A DNA stretch of 64,000 bases from a candidate division WWE3 bacterium CSP1-7 (lineage in GTDB: Bacteria > Patescibacteriota > WWE3 > 9FT-COMBO-53-11), in the NCBI GenBank assembly GCA_001443395.1, contig LDXK01000001.1:153682-217681 (forward strand), read 5' to 3'. Below are positions 7,256 to 50,043 of the stretch, one piece after another. Made by a program: the position numbers and the translations under genes. The notes under the pieces were generated by a model, which was given only the letters and a program-made list of their open reading frames with translations, searched no databases and was not told where the DNA came from. Each line of letters opens with the position of its first letter. Position 1 is the first letter of the stretch.

Positions 7256-7273
7256 GGTTTGGGAACAAGAAAC

Positions 7274-8746
7274 ATGGAAAAAACCAGGAAACTAATTAAC
7301 CGATTAACTAATAAACTGGTGCTGTTTGCACTCACTATCCTATTCCTACTCCTACTAATTACTTCTACCCTCTTCGCCGCGGGCGCAAAGCTCTTCCTCT
7401 CTCCGGAAACGGGAACCCAGTACGTCGGGTCCTATCTCTCGGTGGATGTGCTGGTGAACACCGGCGGTAACCCGACCAACGCCTACCGGGCGGTCGTCAC
7501 CTACCCCGCCGCCAAGCTGGAAGCGGTCGCGGTTTCGACCGGCGGTTCCGTCTGCTCACTCTGGATCCCACCGACGCCACGGTACTCCAACGACAGCGGC
7601 ACGGCCACTTTTGAGTGCGGGGCGACAAAGGCCTACAAGGGAACTTCCGGGCGGATCGGCCGGATCGATTTCCTCGTCAAGGCGGCGGGAAAGGCGGCGG
7701 TCAGCATCTCGGCCGGCGAGGTCAAAAAGGCCGACGGCATCGGCACGGAGCTCTTGAGTTCCCGGGGCGCCGCCTCCTTTGATCTGCAGGAAACACCGGT
7801 GGGAGTACCGGTGATTTCCTCTTCCACCCACCCGAACCAGAACGCCTGGTACCGGGAAAAATCGGTCGAACTGGCTTGGACGGCGACCGAGGAAGCGGAT
7901 GGATTTTCCTATTCCCTCAACCAAAAAGCCGGCGATACTCCCGACGACATCTCGGAAGGGCCGGCGGCCACCAAAACCTACCAGAACGACGACGGCATCT
8001 GGTATTTCCATCTCAAAGCCCGGCAGACGAGCGGCTGGAGTTTCACCGGCCATTTCCGGATCCAGATCGACAACGCCCCTCCGGAGCCCTTCACGATCGT
8101 GGTTGATCCGCCCACGGAGAAAATCACCCGCGCTCCCCTTCTCTCATTTGCCACCACGGATAAGCTCTCGGGGATCGACCACTACGAGATTGCCATTGAC
8201 GGGGCGGCTCCGCTGACCACGGCTAGCCCCTACCAGTTCGACCGGATCAAGGGCGGGATCCATCCCATCACCGTCCAGGCGATCGACCGGGCCGGCAACA
8301 GCCGGGAGGCCAAGGCCACGCTGGATGTGATCGGCGTTTCTTCCCCGACGATTACCAGCCCGACGGAAGGGGAAAAGATTCCTTTCCTCTCGCCCTTGAC
8401 GACAAGAGGCACTTCCTCCCAACCGGGAACGGTTGAGCTCGCTCTCGACGGCCGGCTCATCGCCGAAGTGAACAGCGGTACCGGAGATTTTGAACACAGC
8501 TACAGAAAGATAATCCTCCCCGGCAACCGCAAGCTGGAGGCAACTCTAATCACGGCGGAAGGAATCGAGAGCGAGCCGGCGACAGTCACTTTTCAGGTGG
8601 ACCTTAGCCGGGTCTATCTGCTCGGGTTGGTTCTCCCCGGCTATCCCGTCTACGCCGTCGCTCTGTTGATTTTCGCAGGATTGGCAACTCTCTTCATCCT
8701 GAAGATAAAGCGATGGAGGAGATTGCGAAAGCCGAAACAGATTTGA
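7274..8746 (+). CDS. Cohesin-domain surface protein with Ig-like repeats and a C-terminal TM anchor (paralog 1)
   Basis: The N-terminal TM/signal is followed by a cohesin-like module (LFLSPETGTQYVGSYLSVDVLVNTGGNPTNAY...FECG...GRIDFLVKAAG). Then come THPNQNAWY, DNAPPEPF, SGIDHYEI and AIDRAGN blocks and a C-terminal helix plus KRWRRLRK. An alternative TTG start lies at 7259. Confidence 0.75.
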   Translation: MEKTRKLINRLTNKLVLFALTILFLLLLITSTLFAAGAKLFLSPETGTQYVGSYLSVDVLVNTGGNPTNAYRAVVTYPAAKLEAVAVSTGGSVCSLWIPPTPRYSNDSGTATFECGATKAYKGTSGRIGRIDFLVKAAGKAAVSISAGEVKKADGIGTELLSSRGAASFDLQETPVGVPVISSSTHPNQNAWYREKSVELAWTATEEADGFSYSLNQKAGDTPDDISEGPAATKTYQNDDGIWYFHLKARQTSGWSFTGHFRIQIDNAPPEPFTIVVDPPTEKITRAPLLSFATTDKLSGIDHYEIAIDGAAPLTTASPYQFDRIKGGIHPITVQAIDRAGNSREAKATLDVIGVSSPTITSPTEGEKIPFLSPLTTRGTSSQPGTVELALDGRLIAEVNSGTGDFEHSYRKIILPGNRKLEATLITAEGIESEPATVTFQVDLSRVYLLGLVLPGYPVYAVALLIFAGLATLFILKIKRWRRLRKPKQI

Positions 8747-10212: not shown

Positions 10213-10248
10213 TTGGACGGCTTCCGCCTTGAGCGGAAACCTAGTAAT
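10213..10248 (+). repeat. Hairpin-core intergenic element, copy A2 (in tandem with A1)
   Basis: TTGGACGGC|TTCCGC-cttga-GCGGAA|ACCTAGTAAT. Confidence 0.75.
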
Positions 10249-10305: not shown

Positions 10306-12117
10306 GTGAGCACATCTATGCGGACCAATTTCCTCCGGAAAATTAAAAGGGCGTTTCTGCCTTTGGTCGTTCTTGTCGCGCTGGTCCTTTCTCTCGCTCC
10401 CCTGCTGCCGGTCCTAGCCGGCAACGCCGTTCTCTACCTCTCTCCTTCGGGCGGGACTCGCTACGTCGGGTCGAGCTTTGCCGTTTCGGTTCGAATCAAC
10501 AGCGGCTCGCACACCACCAACGCCTACAAGGCGGTGGTAAAGTTTCCGACCGCCCTGCTCGCGGCCACCTCGGTTTCGGTGGGCGGTTCCATCTGCACTC
10601 TCCAGATCAGCGGCTCCCCCAGCTACTCCAACAGCAGTGGTACCGTTAATTTTGAGTGCGGTCACCCCGGCTCTTTCTCGGGAAGCGCCGGGATAATCGG
10701 GACCGTTACTTTCCTCGCCCGGGCGGCCGGCACCGCTAACCTGACCTTTACCTCCGCCTCCCAAGTGAAGGCGGCCGACGGTTTCGGCACCGAGGTCCTG
10801 GGATCCACCAGCGGCGCGATTTTCGACATCCAGCCGGCGCCGGTGAGCGGGCCGGCCGTTTCCTCCGCCACCCATCCCAACCAGGGTTCCTGGTACGCGC
10901 TCAAAGATGTCAGCCTAACTTGGAACCAACCGGCTGGTTCGGACGGCTTCTCCTACCTGCTCAATCAAAAATCCGGCACCATTCCTGATGGAGTCTCCGA
11001 AGGAACCGCAAAGGCCATCGGCTACGAGGGGCTAGCGGACGGAACCTGGTACTTCCACATCCGCGCCCACGGGGACGGCGGCTGGGGAAACACGACCCAC
11101 TTCCGGATCCGCATCGACACCACCCCGCCCGACCCCTTTGAAGTCACCTCAGAACCGCCGGCCGAGAACATCGATTCCGCACCGCTGATCATCGCCTCCG
11201 CCACCGACCGCCCCTCCGGCATTGACCACTACGAGATCTCCATCGATGGCGGCGACTTCGTCCCGGTTCCCGGAATGCCGTACCAGTACGAACGGATCCC
11301 GGAGGGAACCCACACCCTCACCGTCCGGGCGGTGGACAGGGCCGGCAACTACCGCGACAGCTCGCTGGTGATCCACGTGATTGATGTTGTAAACCCCCGC
11401 ATCACCCAACCCGCTAACGGTTCCTACCTCCCCATCCTGGAACAGCTGGTGATCAAGGGAACGGCACCGGCGGGACTGGTCGAGCTTTACCTCAACGGCG
11501 AGCTGATCGCCCAGATCGAGAGCGACGGGAACTTTGAGTTCACCCACAGCGCCTTCCTTCGACCGGGCCGGTATAAGCTTACGGCGATAGCGGTCACGGA
11601 CCGGGGCATCGTCAGCTCCCCCGCCGAAGTCCAGTTCACGGTGGATCCGCGAGCGGTTAGTCTCTTCGGCCTGAATCTCCCCGGCTGGCTGGTCTACAGC
11701 TTCCTGCTGGGGATCATCATCTTGCTCCTCATCCTCCTGATCCGCTATCTCCGCAAGGCCGCCGGCTTTGACGAGCACGTCCGCCAGGACCTGGATCGGA
11801 TCGAGGAGGAAGAGAAGAGGGACTTTGAACAGGCCGAGAAGGAAATGGAGCGGGCGGTCGAGGGAACGCTCGCCGGCCTGACCGAATCCCAGGTCCACCA
11901 GCTCGAACACGAGTTGGAGGAGAAGATCAGGGAATCCGAGGGGGAGGCTCGCGAGAAGCTGGAGGGAGAACTAGACCGGATCCGCCGCCATCACCCGCTG
12001 GCGGGGCGGAAATTCCGGTTTCCCCGGATTAAAATTCCCCGCTTCTTCCTCATCTTTTGGGAGAGGCGAAAGAAGAAAAAAGGAGAGAAAAAAAGAGGAA
12101 CCTACAGGAGATATTGA
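10306..12117 (+). CDS. Cohesin-domain surface protein (paralog 2) with a TM anchor and a charged coiled-coil cytoplasmic tail
   Basis: Collinear with 7274..8746 (cohesin-like module, THPNQGSWY, DTTPPDPF, SGIDHYEISIDG, AVDRAGN). A TM helix follows, then an E/K/R-rich tail of about 120 aa. GTG start, with an alternative ATG at 10318. Confidence 0.75.
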   Translation: MSTSMRTNFLRKIKRAFLPLVVLVALVLSLAPLLPVLAGNAVLYLSPSGGTRYVGSSFAVSVRINSGSHTTNAYKAVVKFPTALLAATSVSVGGSICTLQISGSPSYSNSSGTVNFECGHPGSFSGSAGIIGTVTFLARAAGTANLTFTSASQVKAADGFGTEVLGSTSGAIFDIQPAPVSGPAVSSATHPNQGSWYALKDVSLTWNQPAGSDGFSYLLNQKSGTIPDGVSEGTAKAIGYEGLADGTWYFHIRAHGDGGWGNTTHFRIRIDTTPPDPFEVTSEPPAENIDSAPLIIASATDRPSGIDHYEISIDGGDFVPVPGMPYQYERIPEGTHTLTVRAVDRAGNYRDSSLVIHVIDVVNPRITQPANGSYLPILEQLVIKGTAPAGLVELYLNGELIAQIESDGNFEFTHSAFLRPGRYKLTAIAVTDRGIVSSPAEVQFTVDPRAVSLFGLNLPGWLVYSFLLGIIILLLILLIRYLRKAAGFDEHVRQDLDRIEEEEKRDFEQAEKEMERAVEGTLAGLTESQVHQLEHELEEKIRESEGEAREKLEGELDRIRRHHPLAGRKFRFPRIKIPRFFLIFWERRKKKKGEKKRGTYRRY

Positions 12118-14179: not shown

Positions 14180-15883
14180 CTAAACCAAAAACGCCGCGGG
14201 CGGCATCTCCACTCTGCCAAATTTCGCCAACTTCTTTTTACCTTTCTTCTGCTCCTGCAGCTTTTTCATTTTCCGTTCCACGTGCCCGCCCGAGAGTTTA
14301 GCGAGAACATCCTTGCGGACGGCAGAAATATCTTCCCGCGCCAGGATTTTCCCGGCCGATCGCGCCTGAATGGCGTAGGCAAACAACTGCCGCGGCAAAA
14401 TTTCCTTCAGCTTCTTTAGTTTTTCGCGCCCCATCCGTTCCGCTTCGTCTCGGAGAACAATCTCGGTTAGGCCTTCTACCAGGTCCTCGTGGACAAGAAT
14501 ATCCAATTCAACCAGAGGAGCGGACCGGTAGTCCAAAAACTCCCAGGACAAGGAGGCATAGCCGTGCGAGATACTCTTCAATGCATCATAGAAACCGCGC
14601 ACGAATTCCAAGAGCGGCAGCTCCGCGGAAAATTTGAGCCGATTCCCCAGAGTTTCCGTCTCCCCCAACTTTCCCCGCCGCTCCGCCACCAGCCGCGCCA
14701 CTCTTGCCAGATATTCCGAAGGGGTGAGAACAGTGAGGAGGATCCAGGGCTCCTCTTCCAACCCCCGGAAAGATACTGTTGGCTTGGTCACCACCAACTC
14801 CAGCCCAAACTCCCGCGTCAGCCGCTCCCTCACGATCTCAAGATGAAAAGTCCCCAAAAACCCGATCCGAAATCCCCGGCCAAAGGCGGTGGAAGAAATT
14901 TCCTCGATCGAAATCGCCGGCTCCTCGAGCCGGAGGGTTTGGAGCGCGCGGCGGAACTCCGCAAAATCGGAATTCTTGGCAAAGAAAGAGGCAAAGACAT
15001 AAGACTGGGGCGGCTGGTAACCAGGCAACGCGGTTGTCTGGTTAGTCAAAACAACGGTGTCGCCGACCCGGACCTCTCGCGGATCACGGATTCCGGTCGC
15101 AATCGAGCCGATCTCTCCGGTCCGCAGAGCGAAAGTCGGTTTTCGGTCGGGGGAAAAATAGCCAATCTCCTTGACTTGAGCCGAGGCTTTGGTACCCAAA
15201 AACTTAACGGTCGGACGATTCGCGGACTCAATTTCTCCATCAACCACCCGTACGTAGGCGATCGTTCCCAAATGCGGATCGAAGGTAGAATCAAAAACCA
15301 GTGCCCGGAATGGTTCGATAAGCTTGCCTTGCGGCGGCGGGATTCTTTCCACCACGGCTCGCAAAACTTCATCAATTCCCTCACCCTCAAGAGCGGAGAG
15401 CCGCAGGATTTCTCCTTCGATTCCCAAATCTCGCAACTCCTTTTCGGTTTCGGGGATCCGCGCCAATGGCGAATCAATTTTGTTGATCACGCCAACCACC
15501 GCCAGCCCTAACTCGCGAGCCGTCTCCAGGTGAGAGAGCGTCTGGGCCTGAACTCCTTGAGTGGCATCCACCAACAGAAGGACTCCCTCGCAGGCCGCCA
15601 GGGAGCGGGATACCTCGTAGGAGAAATCGGCGTGGCCGGGGGTGTCAATCATGTTGAGAGAATATTTGGCGGATAGCAGCTCAAAGGGGAGGCGGACGGC
15701 TTTTAGTTTGATGGTCACTCCCCGCTCCGTTTCCAGCTCCATCCGGTCGATCCGGGGGGTTTCCGTCTCGGCCGGGGGAAGCAGGCCCGTCCTCTCCATC
15801 AACCGATCAGCCAGGGTGGACTTGCCGTGGTCAATGTGAGCGATGATCGCAAAATTGCGGATGTTAGCTGTGGACGTGCTCAT
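14180..15883 (-). CDS. lepA: Translation elongation factor 4 (LepA)
   Basis: IRNFAIIAHIDHGKSTLADRL, DTPGHADF, and the LepA C-terminal domain. Confidence 0.95.
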   Translation of the reverse strand: MSTSTANIRNFAIIAHIDHGKSTLADRLMERTGLLPPAETETPRIDRMELETERGVTIKLKAVRLPFELLSAKYSLNMIDTPGHADFSYEVSRSLAACEGVLLLVDATQGVQAQTLSHLETARELGLAVVGVINKIDSPLARIPETEKELRDLGIEGEILRLSALEGEGIDEVLRAVVERIPPPQGKLIEPFRALVFDSTFDPHLGTIAYVRVVDGEIESANRPTVKFLGTKASAQVKEIGYFSPDRKPTFALRTGEIGSIATGIRDPREVRVGDTVVLTNQTTALPGYQPPQSYVFASFFAKNSDFAEFRRALQTLRLEEPAISIEEISSTAFGRGFRIGFLGTFHLEIVRERLTREFGLELVVTKPTVSFRGLEEEPWILLTVLTPSEYLARVARLVAERRGKLGETETLGNRLKFSAELPLLEFVRGFYDALKSISHGYASLSWEFLDYRSAPLVELDILVHEDLVEGLTEIVLRDEAERMGREKLKKLKEILPRQLFAYAIQARSAGKILAREDISAVRKDVLAKLSGGHVERKMKKLQEQKKGKKKLAKFGRVEMPPAAFLV

Positions 15884-17582
15884 GCTCTTCCGCCGCGGCG
15901 GGAACGATCGGCTTCCGGAAGCGGGTGATCCGCCGCCCTATCTGGGAGAAAATGGAAAGCTCCCGAACCCCCAGCAGCCGGCAAACCAATAGGTAAACCC
16001 CCACCCCCACCGCCCCCACAAACCCGGTCAGCATTATCAGGTTCTTGGTGTAGCGAGTGTCCAAGACAAAGGCCGACCATTCATCAGGAAGAGCAAAGCT
16101 CCCCAAGAAAGAGAGACCCCGGTCCCAGGCCGAGCGGTCGAAAACCTTCAGGACGACGTACATCACCAGGCCGGAAACCAGAGCGGCCGCCCCTACCCTG
16201 AGACCGGGGAGGATAAAATCCCGGAGAGAGAAACCGTTCCGCCGCGCCAGAATCACCCCCAGCACGGCGGCTTGGATCAGCGCCGAAAAGGCGAACGAAG
16301 CGGCCAGGCCCCAAACCGGCAGTCCCAGGACCAGGATGGCGTAGGCCGAGAGGGAGATGTTCAGCACCACGTTGGTCATTTCTACCTTCATCGGAGTGAG
16401 GGTGTCGGAAAGAGCATAAAAGGCCCGAACGAAGTAGGTCGTCAGCGCCTGCCCCAGAATCCCGATGGCGAAGAGGGAGAGAGCGTAGCCGGTGAGAACG
16501 GTCGAATCCCAGGTGGATCGGGCGGCGCCGAAGGCCAGCCGGACCAACGGAATTCGCAAAACAGCGAGGGCCGCCGCCGCCGGCAGGATCAGGAAGATGA
16601 TCTGGCGGAATGTGGTGAAAAAAGTTTCCCGAAACTCTTCCCTCTTCCCGGCTCGGTGGGAGAGGGCCGGCAGGGTGGCGTCCGCCAGGGCGAAGCCGAA
16701 GAGGGAAACCGGAAGCATCCCGAGGTGAAAGGCGAAGGTCAGGTATCCGTAAGAGGGGGTGGTGATCAGCGAGGCGAGGAAGAGATCCGAGGCCTTCAGC
16801 AGCTGGTTGGAGAGCAGATCCAGCACCCGCGGAGCCGCGAGCTTGATGATCCGCCTGACCCCGGGGTGGCGGAAATCCAACGACCCCACCGGCCGGAATC
16901 CCAACTTCACCGCCAGCGGAAGCTGAATCACCAGATGCAACAGAGCGCCTATCACCGCTCCCCAGGCGGGAGCGTAGATCCCCAACGTCTTAGAAAGGAA
17001 CACGATTCCGAGAATGATTGACAGATTGTAGAAGACCGGCGCCAAGGCCGGTACCAGAAACCGCTGGTAGGACTTCAGGATTCCGGTCAGAAAGGAGGAA
17101 ATAACGAACAGCCCCTGGGTGAGCAGAAGCACCCGCGTTAGCTGAGCCATCTGTGTGATCTCGGCGGGATTGAATCCGGGGGCGACGACCGCCGAGAAAG
17201 GCCGGGCAAAAACAAAAACCAGCACCGCCAGCCCCAAAAAGAGCAGGAGGGCGAGGTTCACCGCGATCCCCGCCACCCGCCAACCCTCCGCTTCCTTCCG
17301 GCGGGAAATGTACGAGATAAAAGTGGGGATGAACGCTGAGGAGAGCGCACCCATGATCAGAACATCGAACAGGGTGTCGGGAAGGCGAAAGGCCGCGAAA
17401 TAGATGGAGATGTCGTTGCCGAAGAAGTAGTGAGCGAGGGCTCGGTCCCGAACCAGTCCCAACACCCGCGAAACCAAAATCGAGCCGCTCAGAACCACGG
17501 CCGCGGAGAGAATATCAACTTGGCGGGAAAAGAGAAAATCCCGAGCCTTACGGAATAGCCACATGCGATAAAATGCTAACAT
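15864..17582 (-). CDS. murJ: Lipid II flippase MurJ/MviN
   Basis: About 14 TM, 572 aa, with an N-terminal LGLVRDRALAHYFG...AAFRLPDTLF signature. Confidence 0.85.
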   Translation of the reverse strand: MLAFYRMWLFRKARDFLFSRQVDILSAAVVLSGSILVSRVLGLVRDRALAHYFFGNDISIYFAAFRLPDTLFDVLIMGALSSAFIPTFISYISRRKEAEGWRVAGIAVNLALLLFLGLAVLVFVFARPFSAVVAPGFNPAEITQMAQLTRVLLLTQGLFVISSFLTGILKSYQRFLVPALAPVFYNLSIILGIVFLSKTLGIYAPAWGAVIGALLHLVIQLPLAVKLGFRPVGSLDFRHPGVRRIIKLAAPRVLDLLSNQLLKASDLFLASLITTPSYGYLTFAFHLGMLPVSLFGFALADATLPALSHRAGKREEFRETFFTTFRQIIFLILPAAAALAVLRIPLVRLAFGAARSTWDSTVLTGYALSLFAIGILGQALTTYFVRAFYALSDTLTPMKVEMTNVVLNISLSAYAILVLGLPVWGLAASFAFSALIQAAVLGVILARRNGFSLRDFILPGLRVGAAALVSGLVMYVVLKVFDRSAWDRGLSFLGSFALPDEWSAFVLDTRYTKNLIMLTGFVGAVGVGVYLLVCRLLGVRELSIFSQIGRRITRFRKPIVPAAAEEHEHVHS

Positions 17583-17589
17583 AACACTG

Positions 17590-17817
17590 ATGCCACACCT
17601 GAAAAGTGCCTACAAAAACCTTCGCAAGAGCCGCCGCAAAACGGTCATCAATCTGAAGGCCAAAAATAACCTGAAGAAAGCTCTCAAGGGACCGCTGACG
17701 CTCAAAACATCCGCCGCGGTCACAAAAGCGATTGACAAGGCCGCCAAACGCGGCATTATCTCCGACAACAAAGCGGCTCGGCTGAAAAGCAATTTGAGCA
17801 AAAAGATTAAAAAATAA
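17590..17817 (+). CDS. rpsT: 30S ribosomal protein S20
   Basis: MPHLKSAYKNLRKSRRKTVINLKAKN... is a typical S20. Confidence 0.9.
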   Translation: MPHLKSAYKNLRKSRRKTVINLKAKNNLKKALKGPLTLKTSAAVTKAIDKAAKRGIISDNKAARLKSNLSKKIKK

Positions 17818-17890
17818 TGGACGGCCGCCTGCGGCGACCTAGATTCGGTGAATGGCCGAATAACGGCCGCCTGCGGCGATCTAACATTTT
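17817..17890 (+). repeat. Tandem pair of hairpin-core elements (A4a 17817..17845, A4b 17852..17890)
   Basis: A4a is ATGGACGGC|CGCC-tgc-GGCG|ACCTAGATT. A4b is ...ACGGC|CGCC-tgc-GGCG|ATCTAACATTTT. The 21-nt core repeats with a 42-nt period. Confidence 0.8.
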
Positions 17891-17901
17891 GAAGAGACAA
17901 A

Positions 17902-18462
17902 ATGGCAGAGCCAACACCCTCGACCGCCAAGGAAAGCATTGAACTCCTTCCTCCTCTAACCAAAACCGGGAAAGCCAAAGTCATCTCCTTTTGGGCGCGC
18001 ACCGCCGGCATTCCTTTGATTATTATTCTGCAGCTGACTTTTTTGGGAATTTTTTCTTTCCGGGCAAAGCTGGGAATGGATCTGTTAAAGCTCTCTACAT
18101 CGGTGGTCGAGAAAGAAAAGATCGTGGCGGATGCCGCCGATTTCGAACAAACCTTCCGCAAAACCCAGCGCAAGCTGGAACAGATCGCTCAGGTCGGGAA
18201 TGGGCTTTGCGTTTCCTGTACCATCGAAACCCTCAACAAAATCAAGCCTGCCGCCGTAATCCTGAACACCCTCAGCTTGGAAGGAGAGAAAATTCAGTTG
18301 ATTGCGGAAACGCCGCAGGGCCTGACTTTCGCCACCTTCGTTACCAACATCATTAAAGATGAAGGAATTCGCGAGGCCCTCATCACTTCAGGGAGCCTCA
18401 ACCGGGAAGGAAACTTTGTCTTCACGATGGAACTGGTTATGGACAAGGACAAGATTAAATAA
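17902..18462 (+). CDS. Single-pass membrane protein, PilN-like (tentative)
   Basis: Short cytoplasmic N-terminus, one TM (IPLIIILQLTFLGIFSF), then an alpha/beta ectodomain of about 130 aa. The architecture resembles the PilN family only; no pilM is adjacent. Confidence 0.35.
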   Translation: MAEPTPSTAKESIELLPPLTKTGKAKVISFWARTAGIPLIIILQLTFLGIFSFRAKLGMDLLKLSTSVVEKEKIVADAADFEQTFRKTQRKLEQIAQVGNGLCVSCTIETLNKIKPAAVILNTLSLEGEKIQLIAETPQGLTFATFVTNIIKDEGIREALITSGSLNREGNFVFTMELVMDKDKIK

Positions 18463-18480
18463 ATGAGATGATTGGTTACT

Positions 18481-18565
18481 TTTGCAAAGCAAAATTGCAA
18501 CCGAGCGTAGCGAGGACAGCACATTTGCAAAGCAAAATTGCAACCGAGCGTAGCGAGGACAGCAC
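18481..18565 (+). repeat. Perfect tandem duplication of a 42-nt unit (18481..18522 and 18524..18565)
   Basis: The unit is TTTGCAAAGCAAAATTGCAACCGAGCGTAGCGAGGACAGCAC, present twice and separated by one A. The pair is flanked by a perfect 15-nt direct repeat, AGATGATTGGTTACT, at 18466..18480 and 18576..18590. Confidence 0.9.
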
Positions 18566-18577
18566 TACTACTAAAAG

Positions 18578-19156
18578 ATGATTGGTTACTACTACTATTT
18601 GACAAAAATAAGGCCTTATTTCACCCAAACCGAGAAGACGGACTACACCCTAATCGCTTTCTCGCTGTTAACGGTTCTGGTTTTTGGATTTTTGGGTATC
18701 CGGCCGCTGGCGGCGGCGGCGCTGAAAGCCTACGCCCAGCTCCGGGAGGGCGAGCGCTACGAGAACGAGCTGACTGAAAAAATTATTGCCCTCAACCAGG
18801 CTGGGAATTCTTTCTTCTCTTCCGCCGAAGTCTCCCAGCTCGGAACCATTATTCCGGAAGGCCACACCCAACCCCAGATCATCCAGGCGTTGGACAACGA
18901 TGCCGTTTCGGCCGGCTTTCAGCTGAAGTCGGTGGTCTTTCGCCCCCAAGAAAAAACGGTCTCCCAGAGGGAGATTAATTTTTATGTTTTTGACTTTTTC
19001 GCCTCCGGTCCCCAAAAGTCCCTGGTCGCTTTTATCAAAGAGCTGGAGAAGGGTCAGTTGATCCAAATCGAGTTTTTCCAAACTTCGCTCCGCCGGGAAG
19101 AGGGGGGTACCTCGTTGGAGGTTGTCGGGCGGGGAAAGGCGTTCTATCTGCAATGA
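18578..19156 (+). CDS. Single-pass membrane protein, PilO-like (tentative)
   Basis: TM (LIAFSLLTVLVFGFLGI), then a coiled-coil (LKAYAQLREGERYENELTEKIIALN), then an alpha/beta domain. Architecture-level call only. Confidence 0.35.
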   Translation: MIGYYYYLTKIRPYFTQTEKTDYTLIAFSLLTVLVFGFLGIRPLAAAALKAYAQLREGERYENELTEKIIALNQAGNSFFSSAEVSQLGTIIPEGHTQPQIIQALDNDAVSAGFQLKSVVFRPQEKTVSQREINFYVFDFFASGPQKSLVAFIKELEKGQLIQIEFFQTSLRREEGGTSLEVVGRGKAFYLQ

Positions 19157-29256: not shown

Positions 29257-30048
29257 ATGGCAAAAAAGTCTCTTGGCCAAAATTTCTTGGTTGATCAGAG
29301 AGCTGTTCAAGACCTAGTGGAGACGGCCGGGGTTAGAAAAGATGACGCCGTTCTGGAGGTTGGAGCCGGAACCGGCGTGGTTACCTTAGAACTTGCAAAA
29401 CGGGGCGGCAAAATTATCGCCGTCGAGTTTGATCGCGATCTAATCCCCACTCTCCGCGAAAACCTGAAAGAATTCCAGAACGTTGAGATCATCAACGCTG
29501 ATATTCTCTCCCTAGACCTTATACCCTATACCCTATCCCCTAGCTTTAAGATCGTCGGCGCCATTCCCTACCAAATCACTTCTCCACTGATTCACAAGAT
29601 TTTGCACTCTCCCCACCGGCCGAAATCGATTACCTTTATAGTTCAAAAGGAGGTGGCCGAAAAGATAGCGGCGGCGGCGCCTGATGCCACCTATCTCTCC
29701 AATTTTGTCGCCAATTTCGGCGAAGCGCAGGTTGTCAAGACCATCAAACCGGGGGCCTTCTCTCCCCAACCGAAAGTGGACTCCGCAATTATTCATATCG
29801 AACTCTATCCCAAACCAAAAATCGGGGATGCGGTGAAGCTGGAGAAATTCCTTCACCACGGTTTTGCCCAACCGCGCAAGATGCTGCACCATCGGTTCGA
29901 AGCCGGAATATTGGCGGGATCAAAAATACCGCTACAGGCCCGGCCGGCTCACCTATCAAGGGAGGACTGGCGCAATCTCTATCGGGAACTTTCGATGACG
30001 AGGGAGCGTAGCAAAACCCGTCGCGGCGACGGAACCTGGCGAAGTTAG
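29257..30048 (+). CDS. rsmA: 16S rRNA (adenine1518/1519-N6)-dimethyltransferase RsmA/KsgA
   Basis: KSLGQNFLVD...VLEVGAGTGVVTLELA...IVGAIPYQITSP. A TATAAT box lies 8 nt before the ATG. Confidence 0.9.
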   Translation: MAKKSLGQNFLVDQRAVQDLVETAGVRKDDAVLEVGAGTGVVTLELAKRGGKIIAVEFDRDLIPTLRENLKEFQNVEIINADILSLDLIPYTLSPSFKIVGAIPYQITSPLIHKILHSPHRPKSITFIVQKEVAEKIAAAAPDATYLSNFVANFGEAQVVKTIKPGAFSPQPKVDSAIIHIELYPKPKIGDAVKLEKFLHHGFAQPRKMLHHRFEAGILAGSKIPLQARPAHLSREDWRNLYRELSMTRERSKTRRGDGTWRS

Positions 30049-30083
30049 TGCTGCCCTTCGCTAACGCTCAGGTTGCAATAATT
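30047..30083 (-). repeat. Degenerate copy of the 42-nt unit (reverse orientation), overlapping the last 2 nt of the rsmA stop codon
   Basis: Compare AGTGCTGCCCTTCGCTAACGCTCAGGTTGCAATAATT with the reverse complement of the 18481 unit, AGTGCTGTCCTCGCTACGCTCGGTTGCAATTTT. Confidence 0.6.
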
Positions 30084-30102
30084 ACTCGCTGGCGCTGCGT
30101 CA

Positions 30103-31116
30103 TTAGTACCTCCTAACTAATCGACGAATCTTTTCAGCTCCAAAAACCGCCCAATACTTGGGGGTAAGCGGGTAATCCCAGACACCGGTGTAATCCACCT
30201 GATAGCCGCCGAATCCCTTCTTGAATAAGGAATAGTCGTACCAAGGGTGGCGGGGATCATCGTTCGGGGCAATTCCCCAAAAATCAAAGTAGCGGTAGCC
30301 ATCCTTTTTCGCCTCCTTGATAATCTCCCAGAGAAGGAAGTATGAGATTGGAACGTTCGATCGAACGGATGCGTCGTGAACATAAGTAACCGTGTCCCCG
30401 TACGAAAAAGTGATTGCGGCGGAAAGGACATCCCCCTGGTAATTCGCCCAAACCAGCTCGGCTATCCCGCGAGGAGCAAGAGTTTCGAATTGGGCTTGCA
30501 GGTACCGGCGGGCTTGTGGCACAAAATTTTGCCGGCGTTTTGCAACACCCATCAGCCGGTGGAATTCCTCCATCTTCCGCGGATCGGCGCTGCGGTGGAT
30601 CTCCATCCCCAGGCCCTCGGCGCTTCTCACCAGATAGCGCGTGGTCTTGCGCATCTGCGCCAAAAGGTCTTCTTCCGAAAGGGAAAGGTCCAAAAGTAGC
30701 GATACGCCCCCGGCCTGGCTGGTCACCACCTGCGCCCGGCGGTAACCTTCTTCCCGAAAAAGTTCCTCAATATCCAGATTGGCTTCCCAGTGCGGCTCAA
30801 CCCTCAGGTAATCCACCTTTTCTCCCGCGGCAAAATTCCGGAGATACTTCAGAGTCTCTTGGGCGCGCCCGCTCTCGAAAGATTTTAAGATCGGTCCCCG
30901 CGGCACGTAAACAAAACTCCCCAGCTTCCGCCGGCCAACCAGCGCCTGGCAAATCCCATCTAACGCCCCGCCCTGGTAAGTCCCAAAACGGTGGTGGGAA
31001 AGCCCCAGCTTGTCTTGGAATTCTCCCCAGGCCCAAGATTGCAGAAAAGAGGTGTGTGGCTGACGGGTTAAAAATTCTTCCCAAGACCTCTCCTCGAGTA
31101 TTTCTTTAATCTCCAT
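30103..31116 (-). CDS. FemAB-family peptidoglycan interpeptide aminoacyltransferase
   Basis: SFLQSWAWGEF..., 337 aa, GNAT-like duplicated fold typical of FemX/FemAB. Confidence 0.75.
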   Translation of the reverse strand: MEIKEILEERSWEEFLTRQPHTSFLQSWAWGEFQDKLGLSHHRFGTYQGGALDGICQALVGRRKLGSFVYVPRGPILKSFESGRAQETLKYLRNFAAGEKVDYLRVEPHWEANLDIEELFREEGYRRAQVVTSQAGGVSLLLDLSLSEEDLLAQMRKTTRYLVRSAEGLGMEIHRSADPRKMEEFHRLMGVAKRRQNFVPQARRYLQAQFETLAPRGIAELVWANYQGDVLSAAITFSYGDTVTYVHDASVRSNVPISYFLLWEIIKEAKKDGYRYFDFWGIAPNDDPRHPWYDYSLFKKGFGGYQVDYTGVWDYPLTPKYWAVFGAEKIRRLVRRY

Positions 31117-49245: not shown

Positions 49246-50043
49246 CTAGACGCGTTTAAACCAGAGGATCCCGGAAATCGGGGCGTCCCGGCGCTGATGG
49301 ACTAGTGCAAATCCTTGCCGGAGAAGGAAATCCGTCAAATCTTCCTGATTGGTGCGCTTCCCCGGGAGCACGTGGTACTCGAGACGAATTTCCTTGATCT
49401 TTTTTAAAATATCGGCTGGGGTTCGGTAGAGAATCTCGTACTCGGCGCCCTCGCAATCAAGTTTTAAAAGATCGATTGCCTTGAGGTGATTTTCCTCAAA
49501 AATATCTTGGAGAGTCACACACGTCACCGCAATCTTATCGCCGTGGCGGGAAAAGAAAGAGCTCAACGGAGAGAAACGCGTTAAGAAAAATGTTCGCTTC
49601 CCCGCCCGCCCGGCTACCCCCAACTCAAATGGCTCGATTTTGCCCTCTAACCTGTTGACTCTAATATTTTGAGACAGGAGATAGAAAGAATAAGTCGCGG
49701 GTTCATAGGCCAAAACTTTAGCCCCCTGCTGAGCGGCATAAAGCGAAAATGATCCCAAACTCGCCCCGACGTCCACCACGACCGAACCCTTTGATACCTT
49801 ACCGTAATCTCTGCGGACAAAGGTTCCGATGATCTCCTCTATCTCAACCCACTGCGCGTAACGCATGGCCAACCCGTTGCGGAAAATAAAAAGTCCTTCG
49901 GTTTCAGATCGGGTTATAAACCGCCAAAGAACTTTCGGCCAATTCTTAAGCAGAAAAATTAGACCGAGAGTGTATCGAAGTCTTTTCGTCAAATCTTTCA
50001 CTTTGCGAGAGCAAATTGCAACCGAGCGTAGCGAGGACAGCAC
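49246..50043 (-). CDS. FkbM-family SAM-dependent methyltransferase
   Basis: VVDVGASLGSFSLYAAQQGAKVLAYEP...FELGVAG. The first 14 codons of the ORF-track version lie inside the repeat at 50001..50043. An in-frame GTG at 50001 is an alternative start. Confidence 0.75.
   Translation of the reverse strand: MLSSLRSVAICSRKVKDLTKRLRYTLGLIFLLKNWPKVLWRFITRSETEGLFIFRNGLAMRYAQWVEIEEIIGTFVRRDYGKVSKGSVVVDVGASLGSFSLYAAQQGAKVLAYEPATYSFYLLSQNIRVNRLEGKIEPFELGVAGRAGKRTFFLTRFSPLSSFFSRHGDKIAVTCVTLQDIFEENHLKAIDLLKLDCEGAEYEILYRTPADILKKIKEIRLEYHVLPGKRTNQEDLTDFLLRQGFALVHQRRDAPISGILWFKRV

Follow-up and report, generated by a model that had tools for sequence, protein, structure and literature searches.

A tandem hairpin repeat at the pilN–pilO junction of a WWE3 bacterium and the split duplication of the pilO start

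The window, the whole stretch of DNA analysed here, comprises 64,000 nucleotides of contig LDXK01000001.1 from candidate division WWE3 bacterium CSP1-7. On its plus strand, a tandem array of two identical 42-nt units lies between a PilN-like and a PilO-like gene and is bracketed by two identical 15-nt sequences, the second of which carries the start codon of the PilO-like gene. We compared this junction with related metagenome contigs and loci, which are referred to by L numbers. The 15-mer is the longer half of a split duplication derived from the target gene, and is not a target-site duplication (TSD) made by a transposase. The unit itself is probably a copy of a small, non-autonomous, dispersed hairpin repeat of WWE3 genomes, which belong to the ultra-small bacteria of the candidate phyla radiation (CPR); this degree of likelihood is meant for the best explanation as a whole, that is, for family membership and the history of the junction together.

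Anatomy of the pilN–pilO junction

Reading from 18200 to 18900, the pilN stop TAA is followed by ATGAG, AGATGATTGGTTACT, unit 1, a single A (18523) separating the two units, unit 2, TACTACTA with AA, a second AGATGATTGGTTACT, and then ACTACTATTTG. The features are listed below, with a caret marking a junction and ORF standing for open reading frame.

17902–18462, plus strand: PilN-like gene 5ʹ of the junction, from the ORF list; stop TAA at 18460–18462; syntenic in all related loci
18463–18471, plus strand: mini-ORF ATG AGA TGA, from the pilN stop to the ancestral pilO ATG, which its TGA overlaps (direct reading)
18466–18480, plus strand: 5ʹ copy of the 15-mer AGATGATTGGTTACT, with the ancestral pilO ATG (18468) and codons 2–4, cut after TTAC^T
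18468–18581, plus strand: upstream ORF (uORF) of 37 codons, MIGYFCKAKLQPSVARTAHLQSKIATERSEDSTTTKR, from the ancestral ATG through both units in two frames; its TGA overlaps the real ATG (ATGA)
18481–18522, plus strand: element unit 1; hairpin 1 TTTTGC-AAA-GCAAAA at 18480–18494, TTGCAACC at 18495–18502, hairpin 2 CCGAGC-GTA-GCGAGG at 18501–18515 (overlapping the last two bases of TTGCAACC), tail ACAGCAC at 18516–18522
18524–18565, plus strand: element unit 2, identical to unit 1; hairpin 1 at 18524–18536, hairpin 2 at 18544–18558
18566–18575, plus strand: remnant TACTACTA (18566–18573), matching codons 5–7 of the real pilO ORF, and a 2-nt AA linker
18576–18590, plus strand: 3ʹ copy of the 15-mer, carrying the functional ATG at 18578
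18578–19156, plus strand: PilO-like gene, 192 aa, with an N-terminal helix, a coiled coil and an alpha/beta core; the protein starts MIGYYYYLTKIRPYF

By direct reading, the 42-nt unit is TTTGCAAAGCAAAATTGCAACCGAGCGTAGCGAGGACAGCAC, and Tandem Repeats Finder reported 18481–18565 as 2.0 copies of period 43 with 100% matches and a score of 170. When the unit pattern was searched with up to 3 mismatches, exactly the two matches at the junction were found, and none in shuffles. The 15-mer occurs exactly twice in the window, with an expectation of 0.04 at up to 2 mismatches. An earlier note on this DNA, made from the letters alone, had described the perfect tandem repeat with one A between the copies, the identical 15-nt flanks, the 5ʹ hairpin and the 37-codon ORF with its ATGA overlap onto a real start at 18578. 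All four descriptions hold: the repeat on direct reading and by Tandem Repeats Finder, the flanks by their exact count, the hairpin by its presence at 18480–18494, and the ORF and start by the ORF list and the N-termini of homologues. The bases ATGAG^ATGAT at 18463–18471 resemble one more tiny duplication of a start.

A hypothetical protein of "candidate division WWE3 bacterium CSP1-7" has exactly the sequence encoded at 18578–19156. Its N-terminus, M(I/V)GYY.Y, is kept in the 21 full-length homologues retrieved (46–100% identity to the window protein), and 18578 is therefore the start of the full-length protein. The protein had no Pfam or NCBIfam match. With its AlphaFold model (predicted local distance difference test, pLDDT, 72), Foldseek gave PilO (3jc8_Oa, E 5.5e-7) as the best match, followed by 2rjz and 5uvr. 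As PilO structures ranked first, the label PilO-like seems fair for the modelled protein, and the gene combines this fold with a place directly after PilN. The PilN-like gene matched Pfam PilN below threshold (E 0.0049; 17.3 bits vs a cut-off of 22.8).

Orthologous junctions and the split copy of the pilO start

In seven lineages (L011, L012–14, L105, L106, L109, L110 and L111), the pilN–pilO junction is empty and the two genes are spaced by −4 to +3 nt. The junction reads taa-CCG-atg in L011 and taa-AA-atg in L012–14; the spacing is 0 nt in L105, L106 and L111 and 1 nt in L109, and the genes overlap as ATGA in L110. The junction is filled in the window, in L015 and L108 (one unit each), in L017/L045 (two diverged units), in L023/27/92 (one long unit), in L055 (two units) and in L107 (two nested insertions). 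These empty orthologous junctions bear out the proposal that the block is an insertion. The 5ʹ ATG of the window lies 5 nt after the pilN stop, which is comparable to the spacing at the empty sites, and it is therefore the ancestral pilO start.

The array does not sit precisely on a start codon, as had been claimed, but 12–13 nt inside the ORF, where it interrupts the 5ʹ copy after TTAC^T at codon 4/5. What stands on its two sides matches the ORF's own sequence, at 15 of 15 positions on the left and at 8 of 8 on the right. Beyond what the earlier note had noticed, the remnant TACTACTA duplicates codons 5–7. Because the 10 nt after the array are codons 5–7 plus AA, the duplicated target is about 23 nt long (AGATGATTGGTTACT + TACTACTA, from 2 nt before the ATG to codon 7), with the array inside one of the copies. 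As these 23 nt are present twice, pilO is intact. A precise empty allele of the window junction would read TAAATGAGATGATTGGTTACTACTACTATTTG.

The other filled alleles are built alike. To the left of the element stands a pilO start (ATG plus about four codons), the sequence on the right continues the ORF for 7–9 nt, and after this remnant come a few nucleotides, often with a stop, and then the complete start. Four layouts are as follows.

Window: ...AGATGATTGGTTAC T[units]TACTACTA AA AGATGATTGGTTACTACTACTATTTG
L015: ATGATTGGCTTAT[unit]TTATTACC TAA ATGATTGGATACTATTATTACCTC
L017: ATGATCGGATTTA[units]TATTACT TAA ATGATCGGTTACTATTACTATTTG
L108: ATGATTGGTATTTA[unit]TATTACC TAG ATGATTGGTTACTAC

The same split anatomy, in different sequence, is found in L015, L017, L108, L023, L055 and L107, with about 22–25 nt duplicated. 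In L107 there were two nested rounds; the second pseudo-start is 46 nt long and ends in ...TATTTAC, after which a partial element follows. The remnants have lineage-specific codons (TTATTACCT in L015, TATTACT in L017, TATTACC in L108, and likewise in L023 and L107). Since they carry the synonymous variants of their own lineage (TAC TAC TA / T TAT TAC CT / TAT TAC T), they were copied locally and not imported. Transduction of a donor flank as the source of TACTACTAAA was rejected, as the remnant matches each lineage's own synonymous codons. Of the earlier suggestion that the flanks are a TSD, the derivation from the target stands; a simple 15-nt TSD does not, because the target is about 23 nt long and the array lies inside its 5ʹ copy.

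Across the family, flank repeats are enriched. The mean longest common substring of the two flanks was 5.18 nt vs 4.42 nt when permuted, a value exceeded by 0 of 1000 permutations, and repeats of at least 7 nt were present at 6 of 38 sites vs 1.2 expected. Tests for a TSD of fixed length (k = 5, 7 and 9 at four offsets) gave only weak and inconsistent signals, and many sites had no flank repeat. Some sites have clean flank repeats of 7–8 nt (TGTCTAC in L022, TATGAAC in L069, TTGCAAC in L102), and short tandem repeats specific to the site stand on both sides in L022, L029, L043, L085 and L090. Such tandem 7–9-mers flank many copies on one or both sides, in these five loci as well as in L026/L028 and L030; examples are TCTCTAT x3, CAGTAACxx x4 and CAACCAAA xn, some of them within coding sequence (LYSLFST in L029). 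Footprints of repeated insertion and excision, hairpin slippage, or a target preference for such tracts are candidate origins.

Of the contigs from other samples that encode the same protein, 24 were read, and both 15-mers are kept at all 10 places shown from them. The array has 2 units in L001–3 and L007–9 and 3 units in L004–6 and L010. Each of two single-nucleotide polymorphism (SNP) backgrounds carries both states, in independent assemblies, and L008 is L005 with one unit less. The copy-number polymorphism at the window junction is real; the earlier note had named strain-level variation in copy number as a check.

To place the filled and empty alleles, a neighbour-joining (NJ) tree of PilN+PilO was built with bootstrap and with L110 as the outgroup. 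The window clade groups with L011, which is empty (bootstrap 94); L045, L017, L023 and L015, all filled, form a group (98), as do L105 and L012, both empty (92); and filled L108 pairs with empty L109 (98). Filled L107 and empty L111 have closely similar PilO variants. As filled and empty lineages interleave on the tree, there were at least 3–4 gains, or one old gain followed by at least 4–5 precise losses. L045, L023 and L108 share an identical 5ʹ copy, ATGATTGGTATTTA, and the units of L017 and L108 are nearly identical, which suggests that an old filled allele was inherited in common or exchanged. The perfect copies in the window (15/15 and 8/8), together with units like those of a further window copy at 50002, point to a younger event or to conversion. 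We give both accounts without ranking them. The word "recent", used earlier for the insertion, applies at best to the window lineage, as filled alleles with homologous flanks exist in deeply diverged lineages.

The end of the uORF differs between alleles. In the 2-copy alleles of the window type its TGA overlaps the real ATG, as it does in L108, and in L015 a TAA abuts the ATG; in the 3-copy alleles a TAG within unit 3 closes it 24 nt short of the ATG, and in L017 it stops 22 nt short of the ATG. From their spacing, the empty junctions look translationally coupled, and the uORF could possibly relay ribosomes from pilN to pilO. We discarded the missing Shine-Dalgarno (SD) sequence at pilO as a sign of coupling; it is uninformative, as an SD-like motif is present at only 13 of the 46 predicted starts in the window. 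The host organism may often initiate translation on leaderless messages or independently of an SD sequence, though many of these predicted starts are simply the first start codon in frame.

A dispersed family of hairpin repeats

Three near-identical units and one diverged unit are present in the window, at three sites. The two copies away from pilO, at 50002–50043 and 30048–30105, were likewise absent from the earlier note.

50002–50043, plus strand: third copy; hairpin TTTGC-GAGA-GCAAA, right module identical to 18495–18522 (right 29 nt the same)
30048–30105, minus strand: fourth, diverged copy, subfamily B; TAATGACGCAGCGCCAGCGAGTAATT + ATTGCAACCTGAGCGTTAGCGAAGGGCAGCAC, with an alternative left module

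The copy at 50002–50043, with AC before it and T after it, has a divergent FkbM-type methyltransferase gene on the minus strand to one side and an ASCH gene (50091, plus strand) to the other, and its hairpin 1 reads TTTGC-GAGA-GCAAA vs TTTGC-AAA-GCAAA in the pilO units. The copy at 30048–30105 takes up all of the space between two convergent genes: the TAA stop of a FemAB-like gene (30103–31116, minus strand) forms its first 3 nt, and its last base overlaps the TAG stop of a KsgA-like gene (29257–30048, plus strand). The arrangement AC^TAATGA gives a stop codon to the 5ʹ genes in L018/L040/L050 and L023, too.

When 185,579 species genomes were searched with a strict pattern, there were 6 matches, all in three metagenome-assembled genomes of Patescibacteria/WWE3. 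A looser pattern gave 127 matches at 81 metagenome loci, corresponding to about 60 distinct sites and mostly from aquifer-type samples of the Joint Genome Institute (JGI). Among viral contigs there were 0 pattern matches, and a phage origin was rejected on this ground. With the copies at 50002 and 30048 and these metagenome sites, the expectation that the unit belongs to a dispersed family and is not unique to this locus is borne out.

The element is 38–51 nt long, with a mode of 40–44 nt. Its conserved right module consists of ATTGCAACC, CCGAGC-(3–4 nt variable loop)-GCGAGG and ACAGCAC. The right boundary is sharp at ...ACAGCA(C)^T, with the information content at background 2 nt after CAGCA(C) over about 60 sites. 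At 25 of 38 sites the left flank has AC as its last two bases, at 16 of 38 it has TAC as its last three, and T comes next. The left part is variable and usually forms a hairpin of 4–8 bp that abuts or overlaps the A(T)TG of the right module and whose arms show compensatory changes. Perfect stems of 4 bp or more were present in 75% of 61 unique copies vs 14% of shuffles, and those of 5 bp or more in 56% vs 3.6%, with 20 different arm sequences (e.g., tttgc, ttcgc, tcgc, ttatc, taaacgc and tttgt). In hairpin 1 the structure is conserved and the sequence is not. Hairpin 2 contains two central G.A/A.G oppositions, in place of which only 2 of 43 aligned copies have Watson-Crick pairs (TG/CA in L017b and TA/TA in L057); by direct reading, L039/L049 have a TC/GA Watson-Crick replacement. 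Its outer four pairs carry no weight, because the search pattern fixed them.

Variants of this plan are numerous. In subfamily B, hairpin 1 is replaced by (T/A)AATGACGCAGCGCCAGCGAGTAATT; long variants with extra internal hairpins occur in L023, L055, L107 and L051; partial copies are the second unit of L021 and the second insert of L107; and left modules are swappable at one site (L018 vs L040/L050). Direct tandem arrays are present in the window, L004, L017, L044 and L064, with three 43-nt units in a different phase in L044. In about 0.75 Mb of related DNA, no longer element sharing the ends of the repeat turned up, and left module B, where a recognisable right module goes with it, is always 14–50 nt away from it. 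A long autonomous parent with the same ends was rejected, as no long internal region was seen in the occurrences of left module B. For terminal inverted repeats (TIRs), direct reading shows no match of the 5ʹ end, TTTTGCAAAGC, to the 3ʹ end in reverse complement, GTGCTGTCCTCG, and no inverted-repeat pair was reported at the element ends. A CRISPR-like array was also rejected: the "spacers" would be the 13–20 nt of hairpin 1, which are identical within arrays.

The unit did not behave like a known RNA signal in the searches made. Rfam 15 gave only a tRNA in the window at the gathering score, and nothing relevant in 18400–18650 at E up to 10; neither a promoter nor an intrinsic terminator was found in the unit on the plus strand; and the whole block did not fold better than shuffles as RNA (z −0.24 for the plus strand, −1.59 for the minus strand).

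The earlier note had also linked the end of the unit to a second family in the window, with the box TGGACGGC and a hairpin core. This link is not supported, as the architecture is different and the shared GGAC.GC is short and imperfect. We rejected the relation since in that family the box stands before a variable hairpin and CCTAG after it, unlike in the element. The hairpin-core family has the form (A/T)TGGACGG + variable GC-rich hairpin + CCTAG(C/T), usually just after a gene end, with sites on the plus strand at 10214, 12182, 17818, about 17860, 32038 and 32166, including two copies after rpsT at 17815–17885. The box TGGACGGC occurs 8 times vs 2.65 expected, and a similar motif adjoins an element copy in L086.

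The orientation of the element relative to the flanking genes is mixed: +E+ at 24 sites (the pilO site being counted several times), −E− at 12, −E+ at 9 and +E− at 6. Copies abut tRNA ends in L019, L058, L094 and L080, and start and stop codons in L018, L035, L101 and L102. Seven ORFs in related contigs read through a copy in one or the other of two frames, giving ...IATE.SEDST or ...LQPS.ARTA, among them those for a beta-propeller-like repeat protein (L081/L024, RMY-FAKQIATEQSEDST) and for the L029 protein read as PriA-like. An eighth match, in L099, probably arose by chance. The repeat protein of L024 holds one segment in frame after RMY(F) and a second, older element-derived segment, RKIATEQSEDNTS. 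The L081/L024 site is filled vs empty in L062 and L103, with an insert of 41 nt and a filled allele longer by 39 nt; in L081 a short frame-shifted stretch follows the insert, and the frame seems to be restored by a 2-nt change a few codons downstream.

Some copies lie at pilus genes. In the pilin/pseudopilin cluster of L069 (5600–9300) and L022, one copy is in frame in a prepilin leader peptide (MNFSESEIATERKRGQHYELRTKRKGFTLLELL; L069 ORF 7964–8446, minus strand), another is inside the prepilin peptidase (PilD) ORF (RFSELQPSAARTAL; L069 8456–9283, minus strand), and a further copy stands before another pilin, with the flanks (CTGTCTA)x3 ^ TGTCTAC. Together with pilO, these copies hint at an excess at pilus genes.

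A further gene boundary of the window deserves mention. The junction of the MurJ stop and the LepA start (about 15863–15887, minus strand) appears to be built from decayed element sequence: GAGCATGAGCACGTCCACAGCTAAC, which gives LepA MSTSTANIRNF and overlaps the MurJ end, looks like a degraded right module. In L023 (4520–4620, minus strand), a long subfamily-B copy gives the MurJ stop (GAACAC^TAATGA), and an ATG in the loop of hairpin 2 starts LepA (MSEDSTKFIRNF). In L008, TTAATGACGCAGCG (left module B) lies inside the LepA N-terminus (MNINDAAVIRNF).

The window is otherwise ordinary chromosomal DNA, with genes for LepA, MurJ, ribosomal protein S20, the weak PilN match, holA and LytR, and further genes for glycolysis, UvrD/AddAB-type helicases, MetRS, GroEL and others. 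Two paralogous genes for surface proteins with Ig domains (Big_7/Big_13) lie about 3 kb apart at 7259–8746 and 10306–12117, and several of their DNA segments are 73–79% identical (repeat families D2, D3, D7, D8, D11 and D16). TATAAT-like hexamers stand only 7–10 nt before the predicted ATGs at 29257 and 5567 (gctataatttggacggATG; cgctataatttcctcgaaaATG).

Explanations, known systems and significance

In the history that we favour, a copy of the element would have entered the PilO-like gene after its fourth codon (GGT TAC^T), and local amplification by slippage or unequal exchange would then have produced the 2–3 tandem copies. The interrupted 5ʹ copy would be the ancestral start, now heading the uORF through the array, and the intact 3ʹ copy would head the full-length ORF. 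The duplication could have arisen in one step, if a copying strand exited at TTAC, copied the element, switched back and slipped back by about 23 nt; or in two steps, if the insertion disrupted the gene and a rescuing tandem duplication was then selected. The outcome would also formally resemble a Campbell-type integration of a circle (start-element-remnant) into an intact start. Through the direct repeats of 9–15 nt an insert could also be lost precisely, and the clean empty sites would be explained in this way.

Mobility would be in trans, with a single-stranded DNA (ssDNA), hairpin-dependent HUH/Y1-like route and copying by template switching as the candidates. The ends (..AC^T...GCAC^T), the hairpins and the lack of TIRs and of a fixed TSD give the element its resemblance to elements guided by single-strand hairpins. 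The variable flank duplications, partial copies and swappable left modules would fit template switching about as well, and we hold the ssDNA hairpin-guided route and microhomology-mediated template switching to be roughly equally likely. At the two loci where oppositely oriented copies stand some 2 kb from each other, L037 and L069, no transposase was found; the genes flanked there are housekeeping and pilin genes (pilins, sigma-70, a transporter and a glycosyl hydrolase).

Several points weigh against this account. No transposase, integrase or reverse transcriptase was found by Pfam in the roughly 56 larger ORFs of the window, and no TnpA by tblastn in about 0.75 Mb of related DNA with IS200 and IS608 TnpA queries; with no transposase found and no transposition event seen, mobility in trans stands as a proposal. 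Judged from the sequences, the origin of the duplication would be compatible with several routes. The AC at the left junction fits the target or the element alike at empty sites. Most other copies were retrieved with a pattern built from the right module, so that its conservation is partly a matter of ascertainment, and the support for hairpin 2 is weak (pattern-fixed pairs and few compensatory cases). The NJ tree is equally compatible with repeated gains and with an old gain followed by repeated precise losses. Finally, the right module is very similar at the pilO site even where PilO shares only some 60% of its residues with the window protein (L017a and L108 differ at 3 of about 43 nt), and such similarity across diverged pilO loci could reflect selection for function rather than selfish spread.

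This last point leads to an explanation in which the repeat is a host cis-element, a protein-binding site or a structured RNA that was selected and copied where useful. Besides the strong conservation of the right module across deep divergence at the orthologous pilO site, the compensatory changes that keep the pairing of hairpin 1, the several copies at pilus genes (pilO, and in L069/L022 a pilin leader, another pilin and PilD) and the coincidence of the uORF stop with the real ATG in three lineages would all suit it. We nevertheless regard it as unlikely. The copies show no strand bias relative to transcription; they lie in ORFs in two frames, at convergent gene ends and beside tRNAs; seven lineages have an intact operon with no element at pilO; and the Rfam, promoter/terminator and folding results (z −0.24 and −1.59) give no RNA-level signal. 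As far as the sequences indicate, the element behaves as a selfish or mobile sequence at the DNA level and not as an RNA signal. A simple transposition with a 15-bp staggered cut, by which two units and 10 nt were inserted once and recently and the 15-mers are the TSD, is very doubtful. The exact identity of the 15-mers, the empty sister lineage L011 and the resemblance of the pilO units to the copy at 50002 (same arms, same GTA loop in hairpin 2) speak for it, but the 10 nt after the array are TACTACTA (codons 5–7) and AA, not element. Moreover, there is no common TSD length and many sites are without any flank repeat, about 60 sites share the sharp right boundary at GCAC^T, other lineages have the same split anatomy with different break points, and a 14–16 bp duplication abutting both ends is largely lacking at other sites.

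Two further explanations concern the array itself. Since the period of 43 nt is not divisible by 3, adding or removing a unit shifts the frame of the uORF, and the junction might be a phase-variation locus in which coupling is on with 2 units and off with 3. A repeat of this period, with 2 and 3 copies, does lie at the 5ʹ end of the gene; both alleles are found together on each of two SNP backgrounds, the uORF ends at different points in them (ATGA overlap vs 24 nt before the ATG), and the −4 to +3 nt spacing of the empty junctions is typical of translational coupling. However, uORFs of the L017 and L023 type stop well before the ATG, the 13 of 46 starts with an SD-like motif (many starts being only the first in-frame codon) make the initiation signals a poor guide, only two states were seen while any tandem repeat varies in copy number, and the on and off states are computed uORF end points and not expression; we therefore think phase variation quite improbable here. 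Mis-assembly of the tandem copy, the flank duplication or both would be conceivable, as short-read metagenome assemblies can mis-join dispersed repeats, but we give it hardly any credence: the same structure is present in 24 contigs from independent assemblies of JGI and the European Nucleotide Archive, the array with its flanks (125–168 nt) should be of the order of one read or read pair, and the allelic variants are internally consistent (L008 as L005 minus one unit).

The favoured history places the element among known kinds of short repeats. REP elements (repetitive extragenic palindromes) and the mosaic elements that they form (BIMEs) are about 35–45 nt long and are mobilised by RAYT (TnpA-REP, HUH Y1), whose genes the repeats often flank, and the insertion sequence IS608 inserts 3ʹ of TTAC. 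The WWE3 element is like the REP and IS200/IS605 elements in its size class, its hairpins near the ends, the absence of TIRs and of a fixed TSD, and the sharp end marked by a short conserved motif, and its junction ..TAC^T is reminiscent of the IS608 target. REPs, however, are extragenic and typically in inverted pairs, whereas the WWE3 copies are also intragenic and form direct tandems, so that the REP/BIME organisation is not present; and the left- and right-end hairpins of IS608 are alike, whereas the two hairpins of the WWE3 element are unlike each other. [quoted passage not shown] The WWE3 element is, like them, non-autonomous, dispersed, strain-polymorphic and tolerated inside an operon, but it lacks all three classical features (TIR, fixed TSD, and 50–500 bp with a parent insertion sequence). 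The Chunjie element of Geobacter is a MITE listed as ref. 11 in PMC10969869.

Rickettsia palindromic elements (RPEs) come closest to the copies within genes; as summarised in a review (PMC10969869), they behave like these in-gene copies. Both are short palindromic selfish repeats of a small genome, lie between and inside genes and are translated in frame, and the WWE3 repeat likewise stands in frame in unrelated protein genes, with orthologues that lack it known for the L081 site (L062/L103). RPEs, reportedly the subject of a study by Ogata and colleagues in 2000, are about 100–150 bp long and reside in Rickettsia, compared with 38–51 nt in a CPR bacterium. Unlike RPEs, the WWE3 element forms direct tandem arrays and supplies start and stop codons at gene boundaries. 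It is presumably unrelated to them in sequence, and the likeness would be one of function and not of homology. A last comparison is with phages and islands that integrate at the 3ʹ ends of tRNA genes and carry a replacement gene end (attP). There, as at the pilO site, the disrupted gene end exists twice, truncated and intact; the second copy at pilO, however, has the synonymous codons of the host lineage and is thus a local duplication, while the attP end is part of the element. Every single property has a precedent in REP, MITE or RPE elements, and the element looks like a new family within a known sort of selfish DNA and not like a system of a new kind; on its own it discloses no new class. 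In the literature searched, we found no description of REP- or MITE-type repeats in CPR/Patescibacteria.

A more far-reaching and rather unlikely proposal is that the junction records an undescribed, gene-sparing mode of insertion, coupled to the duplication of 20–46 nt of the gene end, e.g., by template switching at hairpins, and combined with a 2/3-copy frame switch. If true, an intact start would be regained with each insertion, which would account for the repeated split anatomy at pilO, including the nested case of L107, and for the starts and stops supplied elsewhere (the LepA start and MurJ stop in L023, and the convergent stops at 30048–30105). The 43-nt array would then couple or uncouple PilO translation through the uORF in its 2-copy and 3-copy states.

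CPR/Patescibacteria genomes are about 1 Mb in size and dense in coding sequence, and few repeats and little mobile DNA are usually expected in them. Because 2- and 3-copy alleles coexist and filled and empty junctions are found in sister lineages, the present repeat family is one that is active on the strain time scale in such streamlined genomes. It colonises gene boundaries and also conserved coding sequence, among them a pilin leader, a prepilin peptidase, a PriA-like protein and the LepA/MurJ ends. For annotation, it brings false or decoy start codons, uORFs and apparent N-terminal extensions, and its copies are ready-made strain markers in groundwater metagenomes. The family thereby offers a tractable case of how selfish DNA persists in streamlined genomes and of how an interrupted gene start is regenerated.

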